Program-made: the position numbers and the translations under genes
Virus record (IMG/VR): IMGVR_UViG_3300045988_179268
Coordinates: 224,001-288,000 of that record
Direction: 5' to 3' (one strand)
Source: a virus
Length of the DNA stretch: 64,000 nucleotides
In this document: positions 13,526-24,474 of the stretch, one piece after another
Layout of the letters: each line of letters starts with the position of its first letter
How positions within the stretch are numbered: position 1 is the first letter of the stretch
The notes under the pieces: model-generated
Databases searched by the model: none
What the model was told of the DNA's origin: nothing
The model's input: only the letters and a program-made list of their open reading frames with translations

Positions 13526-14287
13526 ATGACCAACGAAGAACCAAAAATTACCTTTGAAAGCATCCTGCAAAACTGGAACGCACATTATAACCCTATCGCT
13601 AAGGCGCAGACACAACAGCCCATTAAGGCATTAGAGTTAAGCGCCACCATGCGTAACCCCCAAACACCGGCAGGCACATACCCCGCGTTCGAAACCTACC
13701 TTGGTGTTGATGTACTCGAAAAGAAATGTCAGCTTAGACAAGAGAAGCGGCGAAAGCGTAAGGAAATCAGAGGGAAACTCTTTGACTTCCTGAAAGTTGT
13801 CATCACTATACTGCTTGTAGGTGGCGCAATCATCGGCGGTTTCATGTTCTTCAAGCCCAGCACCCCACAGAACACTAGCAATGGTGATATTCAAAACGTC
13901 CCTCAGGCGGCAGAAACCATTACAATAGCATCACCGACCACCACCACCTCGGCGGCACCCACCCCGACAGCGGTACCCGAAGGAACCGTAACGCCCACAG
14001 CGGACGCCACACCAGAACAGAAACACTGCCTTACCACCCCAACCAAATCTCCATTCTTGGACGGTAACGGTGCGTTACACTATGGAAAAGGCACTGGACA
14101 TGATTCATACTATGTTCCCGCCAATGAGGACTGTGGTGTGCGATACACGGCAGAGGACGGAAGTAGCTACCATGAAGAGGACGACAACTCAGTAGGTAAA
14201 GAGATTGCCAAAGCTATCCTCCTCATTGTGAGTGTAGCTATAGGCATGATTCTTCTCGTGATGTTCATTGCCATCCTCGCCATCTAG
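13526..14287 (+). CDS. membrane protein, paralog A
   Basis: ATG 13526 after AAAGGTGG. Shares RNPxTPxGTYPAFExxLGVxxLEKK, a TM helix, a T/P-rich linker and YYVPxNEDCGVRYT with the next gene. Has a second C-terminal TM helix. Confidence 0.75.
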   Translation: MTNEEPKITFESILQNWNAHYNPIAKAQTQQPIKALELSATMRNPQTPAGTYPAFETYLGVDVLEKKCQLRQEKRRKRKEIRGKLFDFLKVVITILLVGGAIIGGFMFFKPSTPQNTSNGDIQNVPQAAETITIASPTTTTSAAPTPTAVPEGTVTPTADATPEQKHCLTTPTKSPFLDGNGALHYGKGTGHDSYYVPANEDCGVRYTAEDGSSYHEEDDNSVGKEIAKAILLIVSVAIGMILLVMFIAILAI

Positions 14288-14395
14288 ACGACCTCCAAAA
14301 AGAAACCCATATTGCGACTGGGTGCCTAGCACTATAAGTAGTGCAGGTACCCAGTCGCAATAACCTACAAGAAAGAAAGGTAGGACAAGAAACCA

Positions 14396-15106
14396 ATGCC
14401 CAGTAAGAGCAATAAGCGACTAGCCGGTGATACCACTAAAAGCTGTATCAGCCACGGTAACACCAAATCGTTAAACGCCGCTACCCGCAACCCTGCAACT
14501 CCGACAGGAACATACCCAGCATTTGAGAGTCACCTCGGGGTTACTGCGCTTGAAAAGAAACATGAACACAAACAAGCTAAACAGCATAAGTGGGTAGCCC
14601 GCAAAGAAAGCATCTCACTACTCCTCAAAACCGTAGTGCCCGTATTCCTTGTAACCGGGGTACTACTTGGTGGCATTATGCTCTTCGCTGGCAACACTCC
14701 ACGAACCAACACTGATAATCAAGCCACTGTTAGTGCCCAGATGACCGCAACACCTCAACCTACCGCCACTCCCACCCCCGAAGCAACAGCAAAGCCAACC
14801 CCAACAAAAACATCTACCGCCTTTATTCAGAAATTGTGTTCCACCACCCCCACGGCAACCCCTTACAGGGACAGCAACGGAGTTATGCAACACCCGGCGG
14901 GTTCAGGAAGAGACGCATACTATGTTCCCTTCAACGAGGACTGTGGCGTGCGATATACGCAAGCGAAGACTGATAAGCCTGCCTCCTCATCAAGCCTGGG
15001 TGACTACCCTATCCTCTTCATCCCTCTCGTTATCGCAATAATGCTAATCGGTGGCGGCGGAATCGCCATAATGGTTGAGAAAACCATGCAAAATTTAACT
15101 AGCTAA
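14396..15106 (+). CDS. membrane protein, paralog B
   Basis: Same architecture and motifs as 13526..14287. RBS is AAAGGTAGGA. Confidence 0.75.
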   Translation: MPSKSNKRLAGDTTKSCISHGNTKSLNAATRNPATPTGTYPAFESHLGVTALEKKHEHKQAKQHKWVARKESISLLLKTVVPVFLVTGVLLGGIMLFAGNTPRTNTDNQATVSAQMTATPQPTATPTPEATAKPTPTKTSTAFIQKLCSTTPTATPYRDSNGVMQHPAGSGRDAYYVPFNEDCGVRYTQAKTDKPASSSSLGDYPILFIPLVIAIMLIGGGGIAIMVEKTMQNLTS

Positions 15107-15136
15107 CCCCACTCTTGAAGCAAAGGAGAAGTTACT

Positions 15137-15346
15137 ATGAACATGAACGACCTTAAAGAAAAGCTTCCCGATGGAATTTTAGGCAAGTTGCTGTGGCTTG
15201 CCACCATGCTTGTCATTGTCGTTATCGCTTTCCAGCTTGTAAAGGTATTGGCGTACATTCTGAGTATCGTGTTATTGGGTGCGTCTGCTTATCTTCTCTA
15301 CGATTCATGCCGCAAGCTCAAGAAAATGAACTCAGACAAGCATTAG
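15137..15346 (+). CDS. small two-helix membrane protein
   Basis: RBS AAGGAGAAG. Hydrophobic segments LLWLATMLVIVVIAFQLV and LAYILSIVLLGASAYLL. Confidence 0.65.
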   Translation: MNMNDLKEKLPDGILGKLLWLATMLVIVVIAFQLVKVLAYILSIVLLGASAYLLYDSCRKLKKMNSDKH

Positions 15347-15490
15347 CTTCCAATGGAGCCAGGTTAGCACCCATAATTGGGTGGCTAAGTGAAGAATCAA
15401 CATGGGAAAGACATACTCATTAAGGTTCTTTACTTAGTCACCCTTCTTAATACCTTATGCGGCATGTGTGACATGTCACAAAAACTAGGC

Positions 15491-15520
15491 TTGTGCAGTA
15501 GTAAAAATATGTGGTACACT
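15491..15520 (+). promoter_or_regulatory. promoter (TTGTGC -35, ATATGTGGTACACT)
   Basis: Consensus copy upstream of 15586..15996. Confidence 0.6.
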
Positions 15521-15585
15521 TTTTGTAGCAAGTGAAGGGAAAGCCTTCACAGAGAATCAATGCAATCTACCGAAAGGTGCCCACA

Positions 15586-15996
15586 ATGACCAAGCAGACC
15601 ACCGAAACCCCCAAGGTAATCAAGCTCACCGACGAATGGGGCGACCCTCTCATCGACGGAGACGGAAACCTCCTCGTACCCAAGGAAATTAAGGTAGGCG
15701 CAACCATCAAATTCGACACTTTCCGCAACGATGGTACCCGCGTAACCTCAACCCGCTTCATCACCGGCGGCAACAGTACCCGCCTCACCATTAAGGATTA
15801 CACCGGAAAGCCCGACGGCACCCTCAACGTAATCCAGTGCAACCGCGAATGCTTCACCTGCTGGGAAGACACTGACGACGAACTCCACAGCGAAGAAAAC
15901 TGCACCGGAGCCGTAACCTTCGACGGACTCGAATACATCAACGGTCAGGACATGAACTTCGGACAGGCACTCAATATCACTGTAACCAACCCCTAA
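15586..15996 (+). CDS. hypothetical protein
   Basis: Track ORF 15532..15996. I moved the start to ATG 15586 because the -10 of the promoter (15515-15520) lies only 12 nt before 15532. Confidence 0.7.
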   Translation: MTKQTTETPKVIKLTDEWGDPLIDGDGNLLVPKEIKVGATIKFDTFRNDGTRVTSTRFITGGNSTRLTIKDYTGKPDGTLNVIQCNRECFTCWEDTDDELHSEENCTGAVTFDGLEYINGQDMNFGQALNITVTNP

Positions 15997-16021
15997 ATAC
16001 AGGGACTTTGCTTACACGTAA

Positions 16022-16036
16022 GATGTGTGCTACACT
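16022..16036 (+). promoter_or_regulatory. extended -10 promoter variant (GATGTGTGCTACACT)
   Basis: Matches the window-wide motif TGnTACACT and lies about 10 nt upstream of scaffold copy S1. Confidence 0.55.
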
Positions 16037-16046
16037 AAAAATATCA

Positions 16047-16189
16047 CACCTCGCCTGTGAGAGACGGGAGAGGTGGATAATCTAAACGGATAGGTGGCAT
16101 CGGTTACCTGTCAAGACCAGGATAACTGGCATCAGACAGTTTGAGGGTCACCGTTAAGGAAAATCCTTAACTCATCTACCGAATGACTC
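16047..16189 (+). ncRNA. scaffold RNA module S1
   Basis: Full copy: hairpin 1 CACCTCGCC..GGGAGAGGTG, AATCTAAACGG, GTCAAGACCAGGA, TGAGGGTCACCGT, hairpin TAAGGA/TCCTTA, terminal ..GAATGACTC. Confidence 0.75.
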
Positions 16190-16232
16190 TGGGTAATACG
16201 GATTAGCGGGGTAATCACCCTTGCCAGGAAGC

Positions 16233-16333
16233 GTATTCTCCGTACACGCGGGGATGACTCCGGTTTCTGCCCCGTAAATGGGTTAGCCTCATGGCACGCC
16301 GCATCGTATTCTCCGTACACGCGGGGATGACTC
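16233..16333 (+). CRISPR. mini-array: two identical 28-nt type I-E-like repeats
   Basis: GTATTCTCCGTACACGCGGGGATGACTC at 16233-16260 and 16306-16333. It forms a 7-bp stem TCTCCGT/GCGGGGA with a 4-nt loop. The spacer between the two repeats is 45 nt; 43 nt separate the S1 end from the first repeat. Confidence 0.75.
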
Positions 16334-16447
16334 TATAAACGGGTGGGCAACATTCGTGTCGCACGTCAAGACCAGGAGAGTTAGGTAACTAGCTTGAGGG
16401 TCACCGCCTAGTGAAACACTAGACCCACCCCGCGCAGGGGATGGCTC
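16334..16447 (+). ncRNA. scaffold RNA module S2 (hairpin 1 replaced by a CRISPR repeat)
   Basis: Starts TATAAACGGG directly after repeat 16306-16333. Carries GTCAAGACCAGGA, TGAGGGTCACCG and CTAGTG/CACTAG, and ends GCGCAGGGGATGGCTC. Confidence 0.7.
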
Positions 16448-16485
16448 CCCGAGTCAGCAACAGGCAACCCAGACATCTTAACCGC

Positions 16486-16568
16486 GTTCCCTATATACGC
16501 GGGATGACTCACAGGCTCACCCTCACATACTCGCTGGGTGGATTCTCCAACATACGTAGGGCTGGCTC
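16486..16568 (+). CRISPR. two degenerate repeats after S2
   Basis: GTTCCCTATATACGCGGGATGACTC (16486-16510) and GATTCTCCAACATACGTAGGGCTGGCTC (16541-16568). Spacers are 38 and 30 nt. Confidence 0.55.
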
Positions 16569-16604
16569 ATACCAGGTGTGTGACACAGATAACACAAAAT
16601 CAGG

Positions 16605-16634
16605 TTGCGTACCATGAAAAACATGTGGTACACT
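16605..16634 (+). promoter_or_regulatory. promoter (TTGCGT -35, TGGTACACT extended -10)
   Basis: -35/-10 spacing is about 18 nt. Homologous promoters sit at 17288, 18203 and 19933. Confidence 0.65.
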
Positions 16635-16718
16635 TGATATATAAGGCGCGGGGGTTTGAGAAAGCCGCCAATGCAAAGCTCATTGATAACTATATAGGGT
16701 AAAAACTATTGAACATAA
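16635..16718 (+). ncRNA. conserved leader L1 upstream of tRNA-Tyr
   Basis: About 84 nt between the promoter and the tRNA, homologous to 18233-18314 (shared ..GCAAAAGCTCATTGA.AAC..TATAG.GTAAA..). Confidence 0.3.
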
Positions 16719-16802
16719 GCCGCAGTGCCTGAGTTTGGAAAAAGGGGCTGACTGTAAATTAGCTGTCGTTCGACTACGGGGGTTCAAATCCCTCCTGCGG
16801 CA
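16719..16802 (+). tRNA. tRNA-Tyr (GTA)
   Basis: Acceptor GCCGCAG/CTGCGGC, anticodon arm GCTGA-CTGTAAA-TTAGC, long variable arm, T arm GGGGG-TTCAAAT-CCCTC. No encoded CCA. Confidence 0.85.
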
Positions 16803-16833
16803 CGCAACACATCATTAAGATGTGTTCTATATA

Positions 16834-16970
16834 CCTCGCCTGTTGGTGAGATGGGAGAGGTAGTAAAAATAAACGGGTAGGCAACAGTGTTTGTCACGCC
16901 AAAACCTGAAAAGCAGGTTATAGCCACAGGGCAATCTGGGCGCTCCTTGACCGTGCAACAAGGGGTCACC
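16834..16970 (+). ncRNA. divergent scaffold-like module S3
   Basis: Keeps hairpin 1 (CCTCGCCTG..GGGAGAGG), AAATAAACGGG and GGGGTCACC, but the middle differs and no repeat follows. Confidence 0.45.
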
Positions 16971-17030
16971 AAAAATCAAAGCACGGGTATGTTCAACACG
17001 TCAGCATAATTGAGTGCTGTGACCTCGACC

Positions 17031-17174
17031 TGCGAGGGGCGGGGAGGTCGAAAAAATAAATGGGCAGGCGGCTACCAGCTATCCTGTCAAGACCAGGAAG
17101 GCTGACGACAGTCAGCTGGAGGGTTACCGTCTAGTGAAACGCTAGACCCAACTCATATAGAGGAAATCCGGCTC
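17031..17174 (+). ncRNA. scaffold RNA module S4
   Basis: Hairpin 1 GACCTC..GAGGTC, AAATAAATGGG, GTCAAGACCAGGA, GGCTGAC/GTCAGCT, GGAGGGTTACCGT, CTAGTG/CGCTAG. Ends ..CCGGCTC. Confidence 0.7.
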
Positions 17175-17190
17175 AGTATATATCAGGGGT

Positions 17191-17260
17191 CACTTTCCCA
17201 TACACGCGAGGATGGCTCCATAGCGGGATGGTTGAAACCTCCCTACATGCGGGATGGCTC
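17191..17260 (+). CRISPR. two degenerate repeats after S4
   Basis: CACTTTCCCATACACGCGAGGATGGCTC (17191-17218) and CCTCCCTACATGCGGGATGGCTC (17238-17260). Intervening segments are short (16 and 19 nt). Confidence 0.5.
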
Positions 17261-17287
17261 CCGCAACAAAATAATACGAAACCAGGC

Positions 17288-17316
17288 TTGCAAACCACAA
17301 AAACATGTGGTACACT
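17288..17316 (+). promoter_or_regulatory. promoter (TTGCAA-17 nt-TACACT with TGG extension)
   Basis: CTTGCAAACCACAAAAACATGTGGTACACT. The -10 hexamer ends 11 nt before the first base of tRNA(UCA). Confidence 0.7.
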
Positions 17317-17327
17317 GGTTTACATAG

Positions 17328-17398
17328 GCCCATCTAGCTTAATGTAAAGCAACAGTCTTCAAAACTGTGAGATGTCGGTTCAAGTCCGGCGGTGGGTG
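17328..17398 (+). tRNA. tRNA with anticodon TCA (UGA-decoding; suppressor or reassignment tRNA)
   Basis: Acceptor GCCCATC/GGTGGGT (two G-U pairs), D arm GCTT-AATGTA-AAGC (short loop with no GG), anticodon arm ACAGT-CTTCAAA-ACTGT, variable GAGAT, T arm GTCGG-TTCAAGT-CCGGC. 71 nt. Confidence 0.7.
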
Positions 17399-17447
17399 CT
17401 TGCAAGTAACAAAACCGGAGTTCTAGCCGAAAGTGGCGTAACTTGCG

Positions 17448-17529
17448 GCGTGTAATGACCACGAAGGCAAGTGGCGAGCCCAGTTAGAATGGGCACGTAA
17501 TAGTAGGGGTCGGTTCCCTTCTACACGCT
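17448..17529 (+). tRNA. non-canonical tRNA-like element (anticodon-like loop GTTAGAA)
   Basis: Perfect 7-bp acceptor GCGTGTA/TACACGC, hairpin GCCCA-GTTAGAA-TGGGC, T-like arm AGGG-GTCGGTT-CCCT. The D region and junctions do not fit a standard cloverleaf. Confidence 0.3.
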
Positions 17530-17534
17530 CTACA

Positions 17535-17674
17535 CTCCTCGTCTGCGAGAGATTGGGAGAGGAGGATAATAAAAACGGGCGCTAACCGCGTCAAGACCAG
17601 GAAAGCCAACGATAGTCAGCTTGAGGGTCACCGTCTAGTGAAACACTAGACCCAGCCCACGTAAGGGGCGGCTC
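17535..17674 (+). ncRNA. scaffold RNA module S5
   Basis: Full copy ending ACGTAAGGGGCGGCTC. It is fused directly to a 5'-truncated tRNA-like sequence. Confidence 0.7.
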
Positions 17675-17728
17675 AAGAGCAGTGCTTTTACACAGCAAAG
17701 GTCGTGGGTTCAAATCCCTCACGAACCA
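17671..17728 (+). pseudogene. 5'-truncated tRNA-like fragment (Val TAC-like)
   Basis: GCTC-AA-GAGC, then TGCT-TTTACAC-AGCA, then GGTCGTGGGTTCAAATCCCTCACGA. No 5' acceptor strand is present. Its D-stem GCTC is the last 4 nt of S5. Confidence 0.35.
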
Positions 17729-17756
17729 CACTTGGTACCCTTTTATAGGGCATCAA

Positions 17757-17829
17757 GTCTCTTTAGCTCAGATAGTAGAGCGCCCGCCTGAAGAGCGGGA
17801 GGTCGCCAGTGCAAGCCTGGCAGGAGACA
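17757..17829 (+). tRNA. tRNA-Phe (GAA)
   Basis: Acceptor GTCTCTT/AGGAGAC, D arm GCTC-AGATAGTA-GAGC, anticodon arm CCCGC-CTGAAGA-GCGGG, T arm GCCAG-TGCAAGC-CTGGC. Confidence 0.85.
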
Positions 17830-17862
17830 CGTAAGCCCACCTATTTTTTCGGTGGTGCATTA

Positions 17863-18004
17863 CCTCTCGCCTGTGAGAGACGGGAGAGAGTGAAAACGGA
17901 CGGGCGGCTTCGGTTGCCTGTCAAGACCAGGAGAATTAACTTCGGTTAATTTGAGGGTTACCGTCTAGTAAAATACTTAGACCCACCCATGTATGGGAAG
18001 GCTC
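17863..18004 (+). ncRNA. scaffold RNA module S6
   Basis: Full copy with hairpins ATTAAC/GTTAAT and CTAGTA/TACTTAG. Ends ATGTATGGGAAGGCTC. Confidence 0.7.
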
Positions 18005-18037
18005 ATCCAGTCTACAGCTAAGAAAGCGCGCGGTGCA

Positions 18038-18064
18038 GTATTTCTTATATACACGGGATGGCTC
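18038..18064 (+). CRISPR. single degenerate repeat, 33 nt after S6
   Basis: GTATTTCTTATATACACGGGATGGCTC. The spacer 18005-18037 is exactly 33 nt. Confidence 0.55.
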
Positions 18065-18202
18065 TCTTACAGTCTGGTTCCTTTTTTGCGCCCATGTGGG
18101 CTGACTGGGAATTACTTATATGAAGAAAGAAGAGATGTGGCATCACTAACATGCACTGCTTTATCTCTGTTTTTTCAGTGACACAGATAACACAAAATCG
18201 AG

Positions 18203-18232
18203 TTGCAAACCACGAAAAACATGTGGTACACT
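18203..18232 (+). promoter_or_regulatory. promoter (TTGCAA -35, TGGTACACT)
   Basis: GTTGCAAACCACGAAAAACATGTGGTACACT, a paralog of 17288-17316. Confidence 0.7.
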
Positions 18233-18314
18233 TTATATATGAGACGTGAGGGCTTGAAAGAGTCCCCGACGCAAAAGCTCATTGAAAACCTTATAGAGTA
18301 AACTATTTAATCAA
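18233..18314 (+). ncRNA. conserved leader L2 upstream of tRNA-Tyr
   Basis: Homologous to L1 (16635-16718). Confidence 0.3.
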
Positions 18315-18398
18315 GCCGTTGTATCCAAGTGGTCAAAGGAAACTGTCTGTAAAACAGTCGCTATCGAAGCTTCGTGGGTTCGACTCCCTCCGGCGGCA
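18315..18398 (+). tRNA. tRNA-Tyr (GTA)
   Basis: Acceptor GCCGTTG/CGGCGGC (G-U pairs), anticodon arm ACTGT-CTGTAAA-ACAGT, long variable arm, T-loop TTCGACT. Confidence 0.8.
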
Positions 18399-18469
18399 CG
18401 AGACACATTACTAGAATGTGTTTAGCTACATCATCTATACGTGCTATAGTTGTTGCAGTAAATATTTTT

Positions 18470-18540
18470 GGCGTACTAGTTTAGTGGTAAAACCTCAGTC
18501 TTCCAAACTGATGATACGGGTTCGATTCCCGTGTACGCCT
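18470..18540 (+). tRNA. tRNA-Trp (CCA)
   Basis: Acceptor GGCGTAC/GTACGCC, D arm GTTT-AGTGGTA-AAAC, anticodon arm TCAGT-CTTCCAA-ACTGA, T arm ACGGG-TTCGATT-CCCGT. Confidence 0.85.
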
Positions 18541-18544
18541 CTAT

Positions 18545-18683
18545 GCTCCTCGCCTGTGAGAGACGGGAGAGGAGCTAAATCTAAACGGACACTCACGTGT
18601 CAAGACCAGGAGAGTTGGGCAACCTACTCAAGGGTTACCGTCAAAGTAAAGCTTTGGCACGCTCCGCATAAGGTCGATGACTT
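18545..18683 (+). ncRNA. scaffold RNA module S7
   Basis: Begins 5 nt after tRNA-Trp. Short hairpin 2 ACAC/GTGT and hairpin CAAAGT/GCTTTG. Ends GCATAAGGTCGATGACTT. Confidence 0.7.
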
Positions 18684-18751
18684 AGAGTAAGTATCTACAT
18701 GTTCTAAGTCATCGTGCGGGATTCGCGTCTCACTAAATCCTGCGTGTCTAA

Positions 18752-18777
18752 GGATTCTCCTTCTCATTAGAGAGACT
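18752..18777 (+). CRISPR. single highly degenerate repeat
   Basis: GGATTCTCCTTCTCATTAGAGAGACT keeps ATTCTCC and a TCTC/GAGA stem. Confidence 0.35.
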
Positions 18778-18818
18778 ATAGATGCGTTTTACATAATCTG
18801 AAATAACTAACACTTTAA

Positions 18819-18900
18819 GCGCTTGTGGCGGAATTGGCAGACGCGGCAGACTTAGAATCTGTTGTCAGCAGACGTGTGGGTTCGAGTCCCACCAGGCGCA
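18819..18900 (+). tRNA. tRNA-Leu (TAG)
   Basis: Acceptor GCGCTTG/CAGGCGC, anticodon arm GCAGA-CTTAGAA-TCTGT, long variable arm, T arm GTGGG-TTCGAGT-CCCAC. Confidence 0.85.
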
Positions 18901-18930
18901 CTTGGTGTCCACAAGTGCATGTGGGTGCCC

Positions 18931-19052
18931 GCTTCCGTATCCAAGCTAGGTTAAGGGGAGCGTCTTTCATGAGCCTTCTGCACATAACGGCTATGGGAGC
19001 GCTTGCGGTGCATGAGAGTGCCCGCGCGCCGGTTCAAATCCGGTCGGAAGCA
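18931..19052 (+). tRNA. atypical 122-nt tRNA-like RNA
   Basis: Perfect acceptor GCTTCCG/CGGAAGC, T arm GCCGG-TTCAAAT-CCGGT, D-like TCCAAGCTAGGTTAAGGGGA. The interior has two long hairpins and I found no standard 7-nt anticodon loop. Confidence 0.35.
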
Positions 19053-19083
19053 CGTAACGCCACCTACTATGGTGGCTTGTTAC

Positions 19084-19227
19084 TCACCTCGCCTATGAGA
19101 GATGGGAGAGGTGAATAATCTAAACGGACACTAACCATGTCAAGACCAGGAGAACTAGCTTACGCTGGTTAGAGGGTCACCGTCTAACAAAATGTTTAGA
19201 CCCGCCTCGTATTTATGGGGTAGGCTT
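19084..19227 (+). ncRNA. scaffold RNA module S8
   Basis: Full copy with hairpins AACTAGC/GCTGGTT and CTAACA/TGTTTAG. Ends TATGGGGTAGGCTT. No repeat follows. Confidence 0.7.
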
Positions 19228-19327
19228 TCAGCCTCATTAGGTAACCTATTGAGGCACCCTTATTGCAATAGGGGAGCCTTCGGGCTTCTGGCTTTTATCA
19301 CTCATTCTTTTGCGAGATTGAGTGTTG

Positions 19328-19339
19328 GTGTGGTATACT
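19328..19339 (+). promoter_or_regulatory. promoter-like extended -10 (GTGTGGTATACT)
   Basis: Variant of the motif, about 20 nt upstream of tRNA-Leu(TAA). Confidence 0.45.
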
Positions 19340-19358
19340 TATCATGCTTACTCTTTAG

Positions 19359-19438
19359 GCGCTTGTGGCGGAACTGGCAGACGCGGCGGACTTAAAATCC
19401 GCTTCTTCGGAGTGTGGGTTCGAGTCCCACCTGGCGCA
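19359..19438 (+). tRNA. tRNA-Leu (TAA)
   Basis: Acceptor GCGCTTG/CTGGCGC (one T-T mismatch), anticodon arm GCGGA-CTTAAAA-TCCGC, variable arm, T arm GTGGG-TTCGAGT-CCCAC. Confidence 0.8.
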
Positions 19439-19468
19439 CGCAACCACCCTTAACTGGGAGGTTTATAT

Positions 19469-19542
19469 TCCCTTGTAGCTCAATTGGCAGATGCGCCCGA
19501 CTGTTAATCGGGAGGTTACTGGTTCGAGTCCAGTCTGGGGAG
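19469..19542 (+). tRNA. tRNA-Asn (GTT)
   Basis: Acceptor TCCCTTG/CTGGGGA (one mismatch), anticodon arm CCCGA-CTGTTAA-TCGGG, T arm ACTGG-TTCGAGT-CCAGT. Confidence 0.8.
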
Positions 19543-19594
19543 CTTACGTCACTTATGCGTGGCGTTGATACCTTAGCTTTTTTGTTAAGGTTCT

Positions 19595-19670
19595 GGTCTG
19601 TTAGCTCAGTGTTGGTTAGAGCACCGCCCTGTCACGGCGGAGGCCGCGGGTTCGAGCCCCGTACAGACCG
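19595..19670 (+). tRNA. tRNA-Asp (GTC)
   Basis: Acceptor GGTCTGT/ACAGACC, anticodon arm CCGCC-CTGTCAC-GGCGG, T arm GCGGG-TTCGAGC-CCCGT. Confidence 0.9.
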
Positions 19671-19691
19671 CGTATAGTTTTTTTGGCTATG

Positions 19692-19831
19692 CCTCTCGCC
19701 TGTGAGAGACGGGAGAGAGTAAAAACGGACAGGTAGCTTCGGTTACCTGTCAAGACCAGGATAGCGGGGTAACCTGCTTGAGGGTCACCGTCTGACAAAA
19801 TGTTAGACCCAGCCCACGTAGGGGATGGCTC
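19692..19831 (+). ncRNA. scaffold RNA module S9
   Basis: Full copy with hairpins AGCGGG/CCTGCT and CTGACA/TGTTAG. Ends CCCACGTAGGGGATGGCTC. Confidence 0.75.
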
Positions 19832-19864
19832 CTTGGACTCGAAGTTTTGACGAATAGGGAGTCC

Positions 19865-19892
19865 GTTTTCCCAGCACACGCGGGAGTGGCTC
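19865..19892 (+). CRISPR. single repeat, 33 nt after S9
   Basis: GTTTTCCCAGCACACGCGGGAGTGGCTC (28 nt). The spacer 19832-19864 is exactly 33 nt. Confidence 0.65.
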
Positions 19893-19932
19893 ACCGTGAC
19901 CTCCTGTGTGATACAGGTAACATAAAAACGGC

Positions 19933-19962
19933 TTGCATACCATAGAAACTATATGGTACACT
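19933..19962 (+). promoter_or_regulatory. promoter (TTGCAT -35, TGGTACACT)
   Basis: GCTTGCATACCATAGAAACTATATGGTACACT upstream of the Thr-Ala-Lys tRNA block. Confidence 0.65.
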
Positions 19963-20029
19963 TGCTATATATGGTTCGGGGAAACCTGAAAGACCGATAC
20001 GCTATTTCTTAATTGAATGAATTTTTTTT

Positions 20030-20103
20030 GCCTCCTTAGCTCAGTTGGTTAGAGCATCTGTCTTGTAAACAGAGGGTCGCCGGTTCGACTCCGGCAGGAG
20101 GCT
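20030..20103 (+). tRNA. tRNA-Thr (TGT)
   Basis: Acceptor GCCTCCT/AGGAGGC, anticodon arm TCTGT-CTTGTAA-ACAGA, T arm GCCGG-TTCGACT-CCGGC. Confidence 0.9.
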
Positions 20104-20139
20104 CGCTAAAGTAGATAGTTTTACTGTTTGCTTTTATGA

Positions 20140-20212
<73 letters not shown>

Positions 20213-20242
20213 CTCACACGCCTGTTGCAGGTTGTGTGTTAA

Positions 20243-20315
20243 GCGCCTTTAGCTCAGTCGGTAGAGCAGTGGACTTTTAATCCTCGGGTCGCGGGTTCGA
20301 GCCCCGCAGGGCGCA
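20243..20315 (+). tRNA. tRNA-Lys (TTT)
   Basis: Acceptor GCGCCTT/AGGGCGC, anticodon arm GTGGA-CTTTTAA-TCCTC (one mismatch), T arm GCGGG-TTCGAGC-CCCGC. Confidence 0.8.
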
Positions 20316-20552
20316 CGTAGCATGAAGGGATGTAGCTAATCCTTTCGTAATACACCGGATAAACACTATTCAGAAGGTCGTAGGTTAAAATCCTGCCACG
20401 TGCCACATTGCACGTGTAGCTCGGTGTTATAAGAGCGTCTGGACGGTGCCGGTTTAAGCCATACACAGGGGAAGTGACCTACACACTTCCATAGGGGTAG
20501 CGCCCCGGCTGTCTTGTAGGATAAGGGTACCTCTTAGCGGGGGTGCTCTCAT

Positions 20553-20628
20553 GGTCTGTTAGCTCAGTGTTGGTTAGAGCACCGCCCTGTCACGGCGGAG
20601 GTCGCGGGTTCAAGTCCCGTACAGACCG
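20553..20628 (+). tRNA. tRNA-Asp (GTC), second copy
   Basis: Near-identical to 19595-19670. T-loop is TTCAAGT. Confidence 0.9.
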
Positions 20629-20666
20629 CTTATATGGCGCACTGACCGCCTAAATAGTCAGTCTAA

Positions 20667-20740
20667 GCCCTTGTAACTCAGCTGGTTAGAGTGCCGCTCT
20701 GATAAGGCGGATGCCGGTGGTTCAAGTCCACCCAAGGGCA
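20667..20740 (+). tRNA. tRNA-Ile (GAT)
   Basis: Acceptor GCCCTTG/CAAGGGC, anticodon arm CCGCT-CTGATAA-GGCGG, T arm GGTGG-TTCAAGT-CCACC. Confidence 0.9.
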
Positions 20741-20742
20741 CT

Positions 20743-20814
20743 GTGTGTGAAGCCGGATAGCGAGGCGCTTGCTTGTGGCGCAAGTAGTAGCGGGTGCGAT
20801 TCCCGTCACACACC
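20743..20814 (+). tRNA. tRNA-His (GTG)
   Basis: Acceptor GTGTGTG/CACACAC with discriminator C, anticodon arm CTTGC-TTGTGGC-GCAAG, T arm GCGGG-TGCGATT-CCCGT. Confidence 0.8.
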
Positions 20815-20816
20815 CC

Positions 20817-20891
20817 GCTCCCCTAGTTCAGTCTGGATAGAACGCCGTGCTACGAACGCGGAGGTGGCAGGTTCAAATCCTGCGGGGAGCA
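20817..20891 (+). tRNA. tRNA-Arg (ACG)
   Basis: Acceptor GCTCCCC/GGGGAGC, anticodon arm CCGTG-CTACGAA-CGCGG, T arm GCAGG-TTCAAAT-CCTGC. Lies 2 nt after tRNA-His. Confidence 0.9.
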
Positions 20892-20924
20892 CGTAACAGC
20901 ACCTATTATGGTAGTGTGTTATAT

Positions 20925-21080
20925 ACCTCGCCTGTGAGAGACGGGAGAGGTGGTAAATCTAAACGGATAGGTGGCATCGGCTACCTGTCAAGACCAGGAT
21001 GGCGGGGCAACCTGCTTGAGGGTCACCGTCTAGTGAAACACTCAGACCCAACCCACATAAGGGAAAACGTAAGGTGAATC
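20925..21080 (+). ncRNA. scaffold RNA module S10
   Basis: Full copy nearly identical to S1 in its 5' half. The terminal part is extended (..CACATAAGGGAAAACGTAAGGTGAATC). Confidence 0.7.
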
Positions 21081-21121
21081 TATTTTGCGGCTTGACCCGG
21101 TATTAAGCCTAGTCAGGAAGA

Positions 21122-21205
21122 TTTTTCCCTACGCATGTGAGGCTGGCTCTACTCAGCCTAACATGCGTAGGCGACGTTTTCTCCGTACACGCGAGGGGAT
21201 GGCTC
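21122..21205 (+). CRISPR. two repeats after S10
   Basis: TTTTTCCCTACGCATGTGAGGCTGGCTC (21122-21149) and GTTTTCTCCGTACACGCGAGGGGATGGCTC (21176-21205). The 26-nt spacer is largely the reverse complement of the first repeat. Confidence 0.55.
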
Positions 21206-21288
21206 CGGCTAGGATACGCCCTTCAAGGCGGCGCTACTTTCTTTACATACATAGAAAGTCAGCTTTTATCAATATGCTCACAACATAT

Positions 21289-21361
21289 GCCCCCATCGTC
21301 TAGATGGTTAGGATACTACCCTTTCAAGGTAGAGATGCGGGTTCGAGTCCCGTTGGGGGTA
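21289..21361 (+). tRNA. tRNA-Glu (TTC)
   Basis: Acceptor GCCCCCA/TGGGGGT, anticodon arm CTACC-CTTTCAA-GGTAG, T arm GCGGG-TTCGAGT-CCCGT. Confidence 0.85.
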
Positions 21362-21496
21362 CGCAAGCTTCAAGAGTTATATTTGTAGCTTTTGGAAGCT
21401 GGCATGGGGTCATGCTGTTTTTATAGTTATGGTCACAATTTAACCTTTCGTTACATCGAGTAGCGGCTCGCCGTCTTGTTGGTTGCCGCTATTCTT

Positions 21497-21570
21497 ATCC
21501 CAGTAGCTCAGTGGATAGAGCGCCCGCCTCCTAAGCGGGGTCGTCACAGGTTCGACTCCTGTCTGGGATA
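21497..21570 (+). tRNA. tRNA-Arg (CCT)
   Basis: Acceptor ATCCCAG/CTGGGAT, anticodon arm CCCGC-CTCCTAA-GCGGG, T arm ACAGG-TTCGACT-CCTGT. Confidence 0.8.
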
Positions 21571-21604
21571 CTTTTAGGTAAACCTGTTTTTTAGGTTTAC
21601 CGTT

Positions 21605-21677
21605 GCCTCCTTAGCTCAGCGGATAGAGTACCCGATTCCGAGTCGGGTGGTCACAGGTTCGATTCCTGTAGGAGGCG
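21605..21677 (+). tRNA. tRNA-Arg (CCG)
   Basis: Acceptor GCCTCCT/AGGAGGC, anticodon arm CCCGA-TTCCGAG-TCGGG, T arm ACAGG-TTCGATT-CCTGT. Confidence 0.85.
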
Positions 21678-21678
21678 C

Positions 21679-21750
21679 GTCCCCGTGGTCTAATCGGGAG
21701 GATGCCGCTCTCTCAAGGCGGCGATGCGGGTTCGAGTCCCGTCGGGGGTA
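21679..21750 (+). tRNA. tRNA-Glu (CTC)
   Basis: Acceptor GTCCCCG/CGGGGGT, anticodon arm CCGCT-CTCTCAA-GGCGG, T arm GCGGG-TTCGAGT-CCCGT. Lies 1 nt after tRNA-Arg. Confidence 0.8.
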
Positions 21751-21874
21751 CGCTCATGCGCGGCTTTTTGTTGCGTGTGTTGTGGTGACTTTCGGTAGTT
21801 ACCTTTTTTGTACGGCTTGGGCTGGGTTTGGTTTTTCCTCACTTTTGCCTTACTCAGGTTTCTGGTCGTGTTTC

Positions 21875-21947
21875 GCGCTTTTAGCTCAGTTGGTAGAGCA
21901 AGGGACTCTTAATCCCTGGGTCGCGGGTTCGAGCCCCGCAGGGCGCA
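21875..21947 (+). tRNA. tRNA-Lys (CTT)
   Basis: Acceptor GCGCTTT/AGGGCGC, anticodon arm AGGGA-CTCTTAA-TCCCT, T arm GCGGG-TTCGAGC-CCCGC. Confidence 0.9.
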
Positions 21948-21976
21948 CGTAGCACATTCCTTTTGGGTGTGTTTAC

Positions 21977-22128
21977 TCACCTCGCCTGTGAGGGACTGGG
22001 AGAGGTGGCTAATCTAAACGGATGGGTAGCTTTGATTGCCTGTCAAGACCAGGAGAATCTGCCTTTGGTGGGTTTGAGGGTCACCGTCTAATAAAATATT
22101 AGACCCAACCCTGTGCAGGGGATGGCTC
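21977..22128 (+). ncRNA. scaffold RNA module S11
   Basis: Full copy (hairpin 1 variant ..TGTGAGGGACTGGGAGAGG, hairpin CTAATA/TATTAG). Ends TGTGCAGGGGATGGCTC. Confidence 0.75.
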
Positions 22129-22147
22129 GACAAAAAAGTCAGGCGGT

Positions 22148-22175
22148 GTTTTCCCTGTATACGCGGGGATGACTC
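22148..22175 (+). CRISPR. single repeat after S11
   Basis: GTTTTCCCTGTATACGCGGGGATGACTC. It is 19 nt after the S11 end, and 31 nt separate it from the 5' end of tRNA-Arg(TCT). Confidence 0.65.
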
Positions 22176-22206
22176 ACCGCTAATATGTACAATTCCATAC
22201 CTTTTT

Positions 22207-22279
22207 GCCCTAGTAGCTCAGGGGATAGAGCAGTCGCCTTCTAAGCGATTGGTCGCAGGTTCGAATCCTGCCTGGGGCA
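22207..22279 (+). tRNA. tRNA-Arg (TCT)
   Basis: Acceptor GCCCTAG/CTGGGGC, anticodon arm GTCGC-CTTCTAA-GCGAT, T arm GCAGG-TTCGAAT-CCTGC. Confidence 0.85.
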
Positions 22280-22306
22280 CGCTATATGCCTCAAGGTGTG
22301 TCGCAA

Positions 22307-22456
22307 CACCTCGCCTGTGAGGGACTGGGAGAGGTGGTTAATCTAAACGGGTGGGTGGCTTTGGTTGCCTGCCAAGACCAGGAAAGCTGGCTTCGGTCAG
22401 TTTGAGGGTCACCGTCAAAGTAAAACTTTGGCTCATCTACCGCATAAAGTGAATGG
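22307..22456 (+). ncRNA. scaffold RNA module S12
   Basis: Full copy with hairpins AGCTGGC/GTCAGTT and CAAAGT/ACTTTG. The terminal part is S1-like (CTCATCTACCGCATAAAGTGAATGG). Confidence 0.7.
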
Positions 22457-22496
22457 GAAATGTGGGTTGGCGAGGTGTTTATCCTTGTCAATAAGG

Positions 22497-22638
22497 ATTT
22501 TCCCCGTACACGCGGGGATGGCTCCTGGACCCTCAAACTTGCTAGAGTAGAGCACGTATTTTCCCCGTACACGCGGGGATGGCTCTAACGTCAAGCCTAT
22601 TAGCGTTTACGTTTTCCCTTGTATGCGTGGGGTGACTC
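22497..22638 (+). CRISPR. three-repeat mini-array after S12
   Basis: ATTTTCCCCGTACACGCGGGGATGGCTC twice (22497-22524, 22558-22585) with a 33-nt spacer, then GTTTTCCCTTGTATGCGTGGGGTGACTC (22611-22638) after 25 nt. 31 nt separate the last repeat from tRNA-Glu. Confidence 0.75.
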
Positions 22639-22669
22639 ACAATAACCCTTTTATATATTCACAACATAT

Positions 22670-22743
22670 GCCCCCGTGGTCTAATTGGTCAGGATGCCAC
22701 TTTCTCAAGGTGGGTGGTACGGGTTCGAGTCCCGTCGGGGGTA
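22670..22743 (+). tRNA. tRNA-Glu (CTC), second copy
   Basis: Acceptor GCCCCCG/CGGGGGT, anticodon arm CCACT-TTCTCAA-GGTGG, T arm ACGGG-TTCGAGT-CCCGT. Confidence 0.8.
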
Positions 22744-22775
22744 CGTTCATGCGCGGTTTTTGTTGCGTGTGTTTT

Positions 22776-22848
22776 GCGCTTTTAGCTCAGTTGGTAGAGC
22801 AACGGACTCTTAATCCGTGGGTCGCCGGTTCGAGTCCGGCAGGGCGCA
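22776..22848 (+). tRNA. tRNA-Lys (CTT), second copy
   Basis: Acceptor GCGCTTT/AGGGCGC, anticodon arm ACGGA-CTCTTAA-TCCGT, T arm GCCGG-TTCGAGT-CCGGC. Confidence 0.9.
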
Positions 22849-22877
22849 CGTAGCACATTCCTTTTGGGTGTGTTTAC

Positions 22878-23029
22878 TCACCTCGCCTGTGAGGGACTGG
22901 GAGAGGTGGCTAATCTAAACGGATGGGTAGCCTTTGGGTTGCCTGTCAAGACCAGGAAAATTAGCTTAGGCTGATTCGAGGGTCACCGTCTGGCAAAATG
23001 GCAGACCCACCCTTTGTAGGGGGCGGCTC
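22878..23029 (+). ncRNA. scaffold RNA module S13
   Basis: Near-duplicate of S11 in its 5' half. Hairpins AATTAGC/GCTGATT and CTGGCA/TGGCAG. Ends TTGTAGGGGGCGGCTC. Confidence 0.75.
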
Positions 23030-23062
23030 AGTGTTTGAGAATGAGGGTTGCGCCCTCAGCGA

Positions 23063-23076
23063 GTATTTCCCGTAAA
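23063..23076 (+). CRISPR. truncated repeat, 33 nt after S13
   Basis: GTATTTCCCGTAAA matches only the repeat 5' half. The spacer 23030-23062 is exactly 33 nt. Confidence 0.4.
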
Positions 23077-23098
23077 TATAATTACTATTTCACATTGT

Positions 23099-23172
23099 TC
23101 CCTTGTAGCTCAATTGGCAGATGCGCCCGACTGTTAATCGGGAGGTTGTAGGTTCGAGTCCTTCCGGGGGAG
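23099..23172 (+). tRNA. tRNA-Asn (GTT), second copy
   Basis: Acceptor TCCCTTG/CGGGGGA, anticodon arm CCCGA-CTGTTAA-TCGGG, T-loop TTCGAGT. Confidence 0.8.
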
Positions 23173-23188
23173 CTTTTAATATTGTGTT

Positions 23189-23224
23189 ACGCCCTTGCTG
23201 GTTTTTGCCGGTGAGGGCGTTTTT
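23189..23224 (+). terminator. rho-independent terminator closing the tRNA/scaffold region
   Basis: ACGCCCT..AGGGCGT stem followed by TTTT. Confidence 0.65.
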
Positions 23225-23274
23225 GTTGTATAATTGGTGTACCACATATTTTTTAGTTGAAAGGTTTTCATAGA

Positions 23275-24309
23275 ATGTTTGTTTGCGAGGATGTGTCCCC
23301 TGTTGGTTCTGGCAAGGTTCAGTCTATTTCTTTGGGGGAGTCATTTTTGCCTGGTGACGTGATGGATGTATTGAATCCGTCTATTCCGAGTGCGGCGGCG
23401 CGTATGGTATTGATTTATAAGCGTGATGTTGTCTCTGCTGGTGCGCAGTTGGTGGGCGTTTTCACTGTTTCTGCCGACCCTGCTACTTTTGCGGGTGGTG
23501 TTGATGGTCAGGGTATTATTCCAGGTGTTGCCTCTGGTTCGCTTGTTGAGCGTGTCGTTGAGAGTGTTCCTGTGCAGGGTGGTGATTACGCCTCACATGC
23601 GTTGAAGGTTGCGTCCTGGTTGTCTAATTCTGGTGTGCCGCTGGGTTATGGTGGTGATTTGCGCAATGGTTTTGCTTTTACTGCGTTTGAATCTGCTGAG
23701 GGCGCATGTGCTGTGCCTGATGCGTTTGAGTTTTTGGATGCGGCGGGTGTGTCTGTCCCTTGGTATAACGAGGGTAACTATTTCGGGTACACTGTTTCTG
23801 GTGTTAGTAAGATTAGTTCCCTTAAGGGTGTGGGTTCTGTGTTGGGCGACCTTGGTGACGTTGGTGTGGACTCCCGCGCGCTGAGTCAGGGGGTTGATGG
23901 TGCTGGCGACAATGCTTATGTCGCGTGGTTGCTGTGGGGTGTTGATGATGGTGGTCGTGTTGGGGATGTGCATCTTGTGGCTGGTGACCCGACGCTAAAT
24001 GGGTTCCCGACTGTGGGGTTGCCGTTTATTAAGGGCGCTCCTCAGCTTGTGGGTGTCCCGGTTGAGGAGTATGGTTATCGTTTGGTGACGAAAATGTTCA
24101 CTAATTTCACTTCTGTTTTTGTCACTATTAAGTCCCCTTTGTTTAATGCTAATCGTGTTTGTTATGATGCTGGTAAGGGTTTGTATTCTTTGCCTGTTGT
24201 GGTGACTTTGGGGTCTGAGTCGCCATTGTGGGTGCCTGGCGATTTGGGGGCGCGTATGCGCTATGTTAAGGCTGTTTTGGGGCGCGATGGGGCTTTAAAT
24301 ATCTTGTAA
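23275..24309 (+). CDS. G/V-rich hypothetical protein, paralog 1
   Basis: ATG 23275 after GAAAGG (track 23257..24309). The C-terminal motif NxxRxxYDxxxGLYSLPVVV is shared with the next two ORFs. The coding strand is strongly G+T rich, so stop codons are rare in every frame and the ORF length itself is weak evidence. Confidence 0.55.
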   Translation: MFVCEDVSPVGSGKVQSISLGESFLPGDVMDVLNPSIPSAAARMVLIYKRDVVSAGAQLVGVFTVSADPATFAGGVDGQGIIPGVASGSLVERVVESVPVQGGDYASHALKVASWLSNSGVPLGYGGDLRNGFAFTAFESAEGACAVPDAFEFLDAAGVSVPWYNEGNYFGYTVSGVSKISSLKGVGSVLGDLGDVGVDSRALSQGVDGAGDNAYVAWLLWGVDDGGRVGDVHLVAGDPTLNGFPTVGLPFIKGAPQLVGVPVEEYGYRLVTKMFTNFTSVFVTIKSPLFNANRVCYDAGKGLYSLPVVVTLGSESPLWVPGDLGARMRYVKAVLGRDGALNIL

Positions 24310-24474
24310 ATAGCCTTTTTGGGGAGCTTGTCATACTTTTGTGTGGCAGGCTCCTTTTTGTGTGTTTTCCGGGTTTTGGGCGGGTTGGTGTGGTAGACTG
24401 GTGGTGGGGTTGCGTCGGGTCTTGACGTTGCCCCCTTTTTTCTATCTTTTTCTACTATTTTTTTGGAGGTTGTT

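Follow-up and report, generated by a model that had tools for sequence, protein, structure and literature searches.

Candidate Cas12n guide-RNA scaffolds scattered through the tRNA genes of a jumbo phage

Introduction

Cas12n, the effector of type V-N CRISPR systems, formerly V-U4 or c2c9, has a trans-activating CRISPR RNA (tracrRNA) that overlaps the open reading frame (ORF) of the nuclease; its single-guide RNA (sgRNA) has five stems, the loop of stem 1 forming a pseudoknot with positions -4 to -2 of the repeat, and its protospacer-adjacent motif (PAM) is 5'-AAN (PMC12216341). C2c9 (Cas12n) occurs without adaptation genes, and its PAM is the same as that of the type I systems found alongside it (10.1101/2024.04.09.587696). 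In TnpB and Cas12 lineages, fusions of a tracrRNA with half a repeat have been duplicated into arrays that target several sites (PMC10691335). Here we analyze positions 224,001 to 288,000 of IMG/VR virus record IMGVR_UViG_3300045988_179268, a stretch of 64,000 nt (the window, from whose first letter all positions are counted), in which 13 copies of a structured RNA module lie among transfer RNA (tRNA) genes. An earlier note, made from the sequence without database searches, had described the module and assigned it to no known family.

We propose, at a probability of roughly 78%, that these modules are scaffolds for the guide RNAs of a type V-N CRISPR–Cas12n system carried by the phage. The nuclease gene itself lies in relatives of this phage rather than in the window, and much of the argument below concerns how that absence should be read.

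Results

Modules adjoin cas12n in related phages and have a counterpart in Rothia

In L106, one of the loci sampled from related jumbo phages (cited here by such labels), a 521-aa gene sits inside the tRNA array; a module begins 20 nt past the gene's stop codon, and after the module come five identical repeats whose 33-nt spacers give a 61-nt period. The 521-aa protein matches Cas12n of Rothia dentocariosa (PDB 9J09_A) over its full length with an E-value of 2e-175. The same arrangement of gene and module recurs in IMG/VR contig 174689 (L003/L113). The cas12n genes of these phages encode 521–523 aa, the module follows 20–23 nt after the gene (L106, L113), and in both loci modules stand on either side of it. 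L136, a relative with 94% identity to the window, has a module directly upstream of cas12n; the locus stops within the gene.

The closest non-phage homologs of the phage proteins, at 55–60% identity, are annotated as TnpB and come from Rothia mucilaginosa and R. dentocariosa; the R. mucilaginosa protein (P0167) is a Cas12n by its match to 9J09 (E = 5e-204). At the chromosomal cas12n of R. mucilaginosa, R1, a covariance model of the phage module, matches the 3' end of the ORF plus 41 nt (30.1 bits, rough E-value 1.5e-7), and the phage and Rothia RNAs have the motifs UCUAAACGGAC, GUCAAG.CCA and GGUCACCGU in common. Downstream of the Rothia gene, an anti-repeat (ACTCATCCCC) is followed by a linker and then by seven repeats (GTATTCCCTGTATGCGCGGGGATGAGCC) spaced at a 61-nt period, the anti-repeat segment CUCAUCCCC being a perfect complement of GGGGAUGAG in the repeat. 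An independent and more distant phage locus, L111, has the same layout (R1, 23.2 bits). A scaffold thus stands at or directly after the 3' end of cas12n in L106, in L003/L113 and on the Rothia chromosome, and not in the window. Because the modules adjoin cas12n in relatives and R1 finds its match at the position of the Rothia tracrRNA, we regard them as Cas12n scaffolds. Rothia is likely the host genus.

Thirteen copies of one structured RNA

R1 was built from 11 module copies with a hand-drawn five-stem structure. It recovers exactly 13 copies in the window, the number given in the earlier note, all on the plus strand and all within the cluster at 16.0–23.2 kb, with scores of 40–151 bits (E-values, rough for this model, of 1e-9 to 5e-42; Table 1). 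The near-invariance of the joining segments, also reported in the earlier note, is borne out by GTCAAGACCAGGA, which occurs 12 times in the window and is confined to the module region, as is the lack of a credible ORF in the modules, the longest in 16.0–23.2 kb having at most 101 aa. The description of a first hairpin shared by every copy has to be relaxed, since stem 1 is missing from S2, and S3 has diverged strongly (40 bits); an ortholog of S3 is nevertheless kept in L106 (17339–17501). As for the failure to name a family, the module is indeed absent from Rfam: at the gathering score, tRNA alone passes in the window and no module reaches any family, and at E <= 1 over positions 5800–23300 no match falls on a module, tRNAs and noise making up the hits. 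The RNA nonetheless appears to be of a known kind, the tracrRNA/sgRNA scaffold of type V-N Cas12n. When 185,579 genomes of bacteria and archaea were scanned with a pattern, 89 matches came back, close to the roughly 68 expected by chance; the covariance model confirmed none of them. By megablast, the phage had no match in GenBank.

Table 1. Modules, repeats and transcription signals of the tRNA cluster (window positions; S, scaffold copy)
Feature	Position	R1 match	Strand	R1 score (bits)	Remarks
S1	16047–16189	16047–16194	+	150.9	class B; tail AACTCATCTACCGAATGACTC
Two identical 28-nt repeats	16233–16260, 16306–16333		+		45-nt spacer between; second abuts S2
S2	16334–16447	16309–16447	+	85.9	class A; without stem 1; end CCCCGCGCAGGGGATGGCTC
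Spacers and degenerate repeats	16448–16568		+		spacer, degenerate repeat (end 16510), spacer, degenerate repeat (end 16568)
S3	16832–16969	16832–16969	+	40.1	strongly divergent
S4	17021–17260	17021–17170	+	119.7	variant class A; scaffold to 17174; two degenerate repeats (ends 17218, 17260)
S5	17535–17674	17535–17674	+	124.3	class A
S6	17863–18064	17863–18004	+	135.7	class A; scaffold to 18004; spacer 18005–18037; repeat 18037–18064
S7	18546–18683	18546–18681	+	119.2	variant, class-B-like; end GGTCGATGACTT
S8	19085–19227	19085–19226	+	120.8	variant class A; end GGGGTAGGCTT
S9	19692–19892	19692–19831	+	142.8	class A; scaffold to 19831; spacer 19832–19864; repeat 19865–19892
S10	20924–21205	20924–21070	+	147.7	class C; scaffold to ~21053; linker to ~21121; repeats ending 21149, 21205
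S11	21978–22175	21978–22128	+	139	class A; scaffold to 22128; ~19-nt spacer; repeat 22148–22175
S12	22307–22638	22307–22455	+	144	class B; linker with TTTATCCTTGTCAATAAGG; three repeats
Repeats of S12	22497–22524, 22558–22585, 22611–22638		+		first two identical, 61-nt period
recA-matching 33-nt spacer	22525–22557		+		between the two identical repeats of the S12 array
S13	22879–23029	22879–23029	+	146.6	class A; last unit before tRNA-Asn and terminator
Promoter-like motif ATGTGTGCTACA	16023–16034		+
Further copies of promoter-like motif	16621, 17303, 18219; variant ~19949
25 tRNA genes	16719–23173		+		interleaved with modules
Terminator-like hairpin	23189–23220		+		14 bp and T run; closes the cluster

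The scaffold comprises five stems in six helices, stem 3 being in two parts. That these are structured non-coding RNAs selected for pairing, with compensatory changes in the hairpins, is upheld. Among the window copies alone, double changes occur at 16 of 30 RNAalifold pairs. In a wider set of 48 distinct copies from the window and its relatives (41 pairs), aligned by fitting to R1 and hence biased towards the proposed structure, 94.3% of cells are paired as compared with 79.3% in shuffles and 37–52% when the partners are slid, and 35 of the 41 pairs carry double changes (318 cells), which 0 of 500 shuffles attain. The five stems also come out of independent single-sequence minimum-free-energy folds of S5, S6 and S9 (z -3.0 to -5.5, S9 at -5.5); the fold of S11 differs. 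One detail of the earlier description fares less well: a GGGTC..GACCC helix closing the fourth hairpin is compatible with the alignment (90% paired) yet does no better than shuffles (457/500). GACC:GGTC around hairpin 3 is paired in 99% of cells.

Two further pairings would connect the scaffold to the repeat. The GAG of the stem-1 loop and the CUC of the handle are invariant within the phage family, and in the Rothia and L111 counterparts a GGC loop goes with a GCC handle, so that the partners co-change, in two lineages only. A 3-bp pseudoknot probably forms between this loop and the last bases before the guide, in line with the sequences of both elements. In cis, the anti-repeat pairs as CCA.CCC with GGG.UGG in the fold of S9.

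Three kinds of 3' end, short repeats and mini-arrays

The final small hairpin with terminal GATGGCTC, given earlier as a shared part of the module, is not universal; three kinds of 3' end exist, and GATGGCTC, earlier read as part of that hairpin, is a handle derived from the repeat and placed before a spacer. The earlier note had also overlooked 14 short CRISPR repeats of about 28 nt in the window (hairpin plus ATGGCTC; consensus GTTTTCCCCGTACACGCGGGGATGGCTC), always downstream of a module and with variable spacers between them. In class A (S2, S5, S6, S9, S11 and S13, with S4 and S8 as variants), the anti-repeat CCANCCC is followed by a loop of 5–6 nt, by GGGRUGGCUC, which is a remnant of the repeat, and directly by a spacer. 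Class A is a putative natural single-guide RNA. Class B (S1 and S12, with S7 as a variant) carries the tail ACTCATCTACCG..., and a linker and repeats follow S1 and S12; no repeats lie downstream of S7. By inspection, the class B tail ACUCAUC could pair with GAUGACU/GAUGGCU of the repeat with one mismatch or wobble. Class C (S10) consists of a scaffold, a conserved leader-like linker of about 68 nt (GAAAACGTAAGGTGAATC...TAGTCAGGAAG, also conserved in L105, L106, L102 and L003) and repeats. In general, class B and C linkers measure about 45–70 nt, are conserved in several copies and resemble leaders.

The site after tRNA-Arg (ACG) holds class C in the window and L105 and class A in the orthologous position of L103 and L101. 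It fits these sequences that class A arose from class C by loss of the leader and most of the first repeat. Intact arrays have 33-nt spacers and a 61-nt period. The first spacers of S6 and S9 are exactly 33 nt long; the 61-nt period occurs once in the window (22524 to 22585) and repeatedly in relatives, recurring in L003, L005, L105 and L106. Downstream of S4, the spacers are about 15–18 nt. Most spacers begin with C, as an origin of that base in an AAC PAM would predict. The repeats resemble those of type I-E systems in their 28-nt length and hairpin-plus-handle layout; type I cas genes were found neither among the window ORFs of at least 150 aa (Pfam) nor in the precomputed Pfam calls of the sampled loci.

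A spacer matching a recA gene, and spacers of relatives matching tRNA genes

The spacer between the two identical repeats of the S12 array matches metagenome contig SKEH01000117.1 at 33 of 33 positions, the protospacer being preceded by a 5'-AA|C PAM. The metagenome scan used a 20-mer as query, and a chance occurrence would be plausible in a collection that large; we dismiss chance for this spacer because 13 further bases and the PAM also agree. The protospacer lies in a recA gene with recX next to it. Homologs of the RecX of this contig fall into only seven protein clusters, whose longest contigs are 279–339 kb, and the surrounding genes (DNA polymerase III, PD-(D/E)XK nuclease, kinase) look jumbo-phage-like. 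The target would appear to belong to another jumbo-sized phage.

In relatives, spacers point to tRNA genes. In six relatives, the L106b3 spacer agrees with the tRNA-Tyr gene on its antisense strand (29/32, PAM AAC). The L003g spacer (174689, L003 4879–4910) agrees likewise with the antisense strand of tRNA-Asp in relatives, again with an AAC PAM. In the window itself, L003g agrees with tRNA-Asp genes at 19 of 19 PAM-proximal bases (20551–20569) and at 18 of 18 (19594–19611); on these matches, the phage studied here may itself be a target of the cas12n-positive relative IMGVR_UViG_3300045988_174689. As to self-targeting, 12-mers of the candidate guides of the window match the window at chance level only.

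The tRNA setting

The proposal that tRNAs and scaffolds form a polycistron is strengthened by five promoter-like motifs, one strong terminator and the lack of ORFs across the cluster. The motif AWRTGTGGTACA occurs 19 times in the window, as compared with 1.2 expected, and precedes genes throughout. S1 starts 13 nt past one of its copies, and most modules are set off from the upstream tRNA by a hairpin trailer of about 30 nt. The tRNA order is kept in relatives that have 0–2 modules in the sampled part of the array, which suggests that the guide units were inserted into a tRNA operon that already existed. The handle of S5 (GGCTC) is joined directly to a 5'-truncated tRNA-Val (17670–17745; a partial tRNA match), where relatives have an intact tRNA-Val (TAC).

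Several further features of the cluster deserve mention in their own right. The joint between S5 and tRNA-Val resembles microhomology (GGCTCA against AGCTCA of the tRNA D-arm). Outside the cluster, the promoter-like motif, in the form A(T/A)RTGTGGTACA, is found for example at 1352, 2773, 15507, 27075, 29046, 45609, 47937 and 51480; nearly all its copies in the window are on the plus strand. Between promoter-like motif and first tRNA, a leader of about 60 nt (..GGGGTTTGAGAAAGCCGCCAATGCAAAGCTCATTGA..) recurs at 16640–16700 and 18240–18300 and, more weakly, at 19960–20010; L106 and L102 conserve it too. At 17328–17399, a tRNA with the anticodon UCA, called SeC by ARAGORN, occupies the position of a tRNA-Trp (CCA) in relatives, near-identical in L106, and a single C-to-T change would turn it into a potential suppressor of opal codons. 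Of 43 long plus-strand reading frames, only 4 end in TGA; recoding of UGA was considered and rejected, reading TGA as sense lengthening ORFs no more than does the same treatment of other stop codons. A tRNA-like gene of 122 nt at 18931–19052 is interrupted internally by a long insertion (Rfam tRNA, 35.7 bits; not called by ARAGORN) and is 90% conserved in L003. A structured tRNA-like element with a T-arm-like GGTTAAAATCC stands between tRNA-Lys and tRNA-Asp (20352–20458) and has a weak Rfam match to YrlA (Y RNA-like), far below the gathering score.

Points against the assignment and the missing nuclease gene

A number of observations weigh against assigning the modules of the window to a Cas12n system. 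Foremost, no cas12n was found in the 64-kb window by tblastn at E < 1, and the nearest relative, L136, has the gene exactly where the window is without it. Several arrays of the window look decayed, with degenerate repeats and spacers whose lengths run from roughly 15 nt to 45 nt. A target has been identified for only one of the approximately 24 candidate guides of the window; five window spacers scanned against IMG/VR gave no match, and BLAST searches of the window spacers against GenBank phages returned nothing meaningful. In addition, the R1 match to the Rothia tracrRNA is modest at 30 bits, on a model whose E-values are rough, and the phage module begins after the stop codon whereas its Rothia counterpart overlaps the ORF.

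How could the nuclease gene have been lost? Positions 1–16167 of the window are colinear with L136 at 94.2% identity, and L136 continues with the same promoter and module and then cas12n. S1 is a chimera: as far as about 16090 it is near-identical to the module that precedes cas12n in L136, and beyond that point it resembles the class B modules that follow cas12n. The simplest account is that cas12n was probably lost by recombination between its flanking modules; alternatively, assembly collapse may have removed it. The RNAs of the window would then rely on a Cas12n copy in the roughly 270 kb of the genome outside our view, in a co-infecting relative or in the host, or would have been orphaned recently. 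An extreme form of such dependence is guide-only parasitism, in which a nuclease-less phage would keep about 24 tRNA-processed guides or CRISPR RNAs (crRNAs) and load them onto Cas12n supplied in trans, by a Rothia host or a co-infecting relative, for use against competing jumbo phages. We regard this as an improbable idea; if true, it would amount to a natural polycistronic tRNA–sgRNA operon without a cognate cas gene.

Neighboring genes

Two TnpB-family genes lie in the window outside the tRNA cluster. A TnpB-like gene of 384 aa (6230–7384) holds the same position across the jumbo-phage clade. Behind it come conserved hairpins and 1.1 kb of non-coding DNA (7385–8507), with a weak reverse-strand TnpB-like fragment at 7552–7743; in one lineage, seen on 24 contigs, the gene is split into 170 and 228 aa. 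It was considered as a partner of the modules, GATGACTC lying at 7688 downstream of it, and was rejected, R1 giving no match there with its filters off. The second, more distant ORF (40110–41711; 533 aa, TNB domain only) has no module or obvious guide RNA adjoining; it is 69% identical to a fragment in L106 and to two L097 copies, which face opposite ways and share 83% identity with one another. Modules were found beside neither TnpB-like gene of the window.

Upstream of these, a T4 Rnl1-type RNA ligase gene stands beside an equal-sized ORF of 400 aa without a Pfam match (2859–4061 and 4242–5444), and L100 has an AAA_33 plus Metallophos protein near the RNA ligase region; this neighborhood suggests a tRNA-repair module close to the tRNA array. 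The genes just past the array (23257–28000) differ from the rest of the window in their strong coding-strand skews (GC +0.29, AT -0.35). Two pairs of DUF2201 (VWA-like) and AAA_5 ATPase genes, at 29738–32125 and 42058–45490, are possibly paralogous modules.

Discussion

In conjunction, the adjacency to cas12n, the anatomy of the RNA and the PAM-flanked protospacers lead us to the following model. The tRNA/guide polycistrons would start at the phage's own promoters, and RNase P and RNase Z, by cutting out the tRNAs, would release the guide RNAs between them. A class B or C scaffold would work in trans, as the tracrRNA of its mini-array. Loaded with such guides, Cas12n would direct cleavage of DNA carrying a 5'-AAN PAM, and as the targets identified so far lie in other jumbo phages, the likely role would be competition between phages. 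Spacers would probably be added in trans by Cas1–Cas2 of a type I-E system of the host; uptake of AAC-flanked protospacers by such a complex would be expected to leave C as the first base of the spacer.

Of the competing explanations, the least unlikely holds that the modules are orphaned relics, functionless and decaying since cas12n was lost by recombination. The empty site in the window, set against the gene in L136, speaks for it, as do the degenerate repeats and irregular spacer lengths compared with the pristine arrays of cas12n-positive L106, the fusion of S5 to a truncated tRNA-Val, and the missing stem 1 of S2. Against it, the scaffolds score as high in the window as in cas12n-positive relatives (120–151 bits); a spacer held between two perfect repeats still has a perfect 33/33 target with the right PAM. 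Moreover, L105, L103, L101 and L102, with no cas12n in the approximately 10 kb sampled on each side, keep intact modules, and the unseen part of the genome (about 270 kb) could hold the gene. We consider this explanation unlikely.

A second possibility is that the scaffolds and repeats are RNA decoys, mimics that titrate Cas12n of the host and/or its type I-E Cas6e/Cascade. Camara-Wilpert and colleagues reportedly found in 2023 that solitary repeat units of phages act as RNA anti-CRISPRs, and Rothia, the likely host genus, carries on its chromosome a Cas12n whose tracrRNA is homologous and whose repeats are similar; the combination of many copies with an absent nuclease gene would also suit a decoy. 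Against it, spacers find genuine targets, flanked by a PAM, in other phages. A Cas12n of their own is encoded beside the same RNAs by close relatives, and regular 61-nt arrays with diverse spacers point to real spacer acquisition, which makes this explanation very unlikely in our judgment.

The repeats alone could raise a third possibility, that the repeat–spacer units serve a type I-E Cascade–Cas3 of the host, the scaffolds being leftovers or leader elements. The window repeat is identical at 19 of 28 positions to that of Escherichia coli type I-E, GAGTTCCCCGCGCCAGCGGGGATAAACCG, and shares its hairpin-plus-handle layout; type I-E also has the 61-nt period, and the first base of the spacers appears to come from the PAM. 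Yet every repeat of the window and every array of the sampled relatives lies downstream of a scaffold, none alone; bona fide Cas12n loci of Rothia use the same kind of repeat; and the fusion of scaffold and handle in class A only makes sense for a tracrRNA-dependent effector. We hold this reading to be highly improbable.

That the modules are omega RNAs acting in trans for the 384-aa or the 533-aa TnpB-like protein, both of which have a Cas12f1-like TNB domain, the gene of the former being syntenic at 49–96% identity across the clade just upstream of the tRNA array, apparently intact in its D-E-D residues and in L098 followed by a module 19 nt after the stop codon of its homolog, can practically be set aside: the L098 adjacency is a recombination joint, cas12n being the source of the final ~10 codons (REAERLYAEA) and of the DNA downstream, no module accompanies the 384-aa gene in the window (filters off) or in L096, L100, L101 and L102, that gene has conserved downstream hairpins of its own and is split in a lineage with intact modules, the RNA-binding N-terminal half of its product is without similarity to Cas12n, the 533-aa protein is only distantly TnpB-like, and the module copies precede repeat–spacer arrays or spacers with targets elsewhere.

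What, then, is the relevance of a Cas12n guide system in such a place? If our assignment is right, two ideas of genome engineering, the fusion of tracrRNA with crRNA and the multiplexing of guides by alternation with tRNAs, appear to have arisen naturally in a phage. Type V-N, known from chromosomes of Actinomycetota, would now extend to jumbo phages of human-associated metagenomes, and spacers against a jumbo-phage recA and against the tRNA genes of related phages point to CRISPR warfare between phages. The three module classes at orthologous sites may capture steps on the way from a tracrRNA with an array to an omega-RNA-like single guide, and so bear on the interconversion of type V systems and TnpB guide RNAs. 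At least 13 natural scaffold variants, with compensatory changes in stems 2–4, offer a mutational scan for minimizing Cas12n sgRNAs. Finally, the missing cas12n suggests that repeated scaffolds can delete their own effector by recombination.

Comparison with known systems

The closest described system is type V-N as represented by RdCas12n (PDB 9J09). The resemblance extends to a full-length Cas12n homolog in the relatives with the scaffold at or after the 3' end of the gene, to five stems, probably to a pseudoknot between stem-1 loop and repeat end, to the anti-repeat:repeat stem, to the 5'-AAN PAM, and to a downstream array of repeats of about 28 nt with adaptation genes not nearby. Unlike the known type V-N systems, the present one is borne by a jumbo phage, has 13 scaffolds instead of one, scattered among tRNA genes, has many copies fused in cis to a repeat remnant and a spacer, and is without the nuclease gene in the window.

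With the omega RNAs of TnpB (Altae-Tran et al. 2021; PMC10691335), the modules share a scaffold of about 130–150 nt, a guide at the 3' end and, in relatives, an adjoining gene of the TnpB family. In contrast to omega-RNA arrays, they were seen inside no insertion sequence (IS) element, transposon ends not having been looked for, include true repeat–spacer arrays with a 61-nt period, go with an active-looking Cas12n rather than a nuclease-dead TnpB, and are dispersed among tRNAs rather than in tandem. The likeness to type I-E repeats comprises a length of 28–29 nt, a CCCCG...CGGGG hairpin, a 3' handle of 7–8 nt, the 61-nt period and a first spacer base that looks PAM-derived; unlike in type I-E, each repeat of the window and each array of a relative follows a scaffold of the Cas12n type.

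Huge phages are said to encode CRISPR arrays and compact Cas systems, Cas-phi and Cas-lambda among them, as reported by Al-Shayeb and colleagues in 2020. Our locus resembles these in having a phage array that targets competing phages, a miniature type V nuclease (in the relatives) and no adaptation genes, and differs in belonging to another Cas12 subtype, one with a tracrRNA, and in its multiple scaffolds embedded in tRNA operons. Polycistronic tRNA–gRNA (guide RNA) arrays have reportedly been engineered by Xie and colleagues (2015); as in those, guides alternate with tRNAs in one predicted transcript from which RNase P and RNase Z could release them, the arrangement here being natural and its processing predicted. 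What is new is thus the setting, namely a jumbo phage with 13 scaffolds spread through its tRNA operons, natural single-guide fusions, mini-arrays, jumbo-phage targets and the probable loss of the nuclease gene, the class of RNA itself being known.

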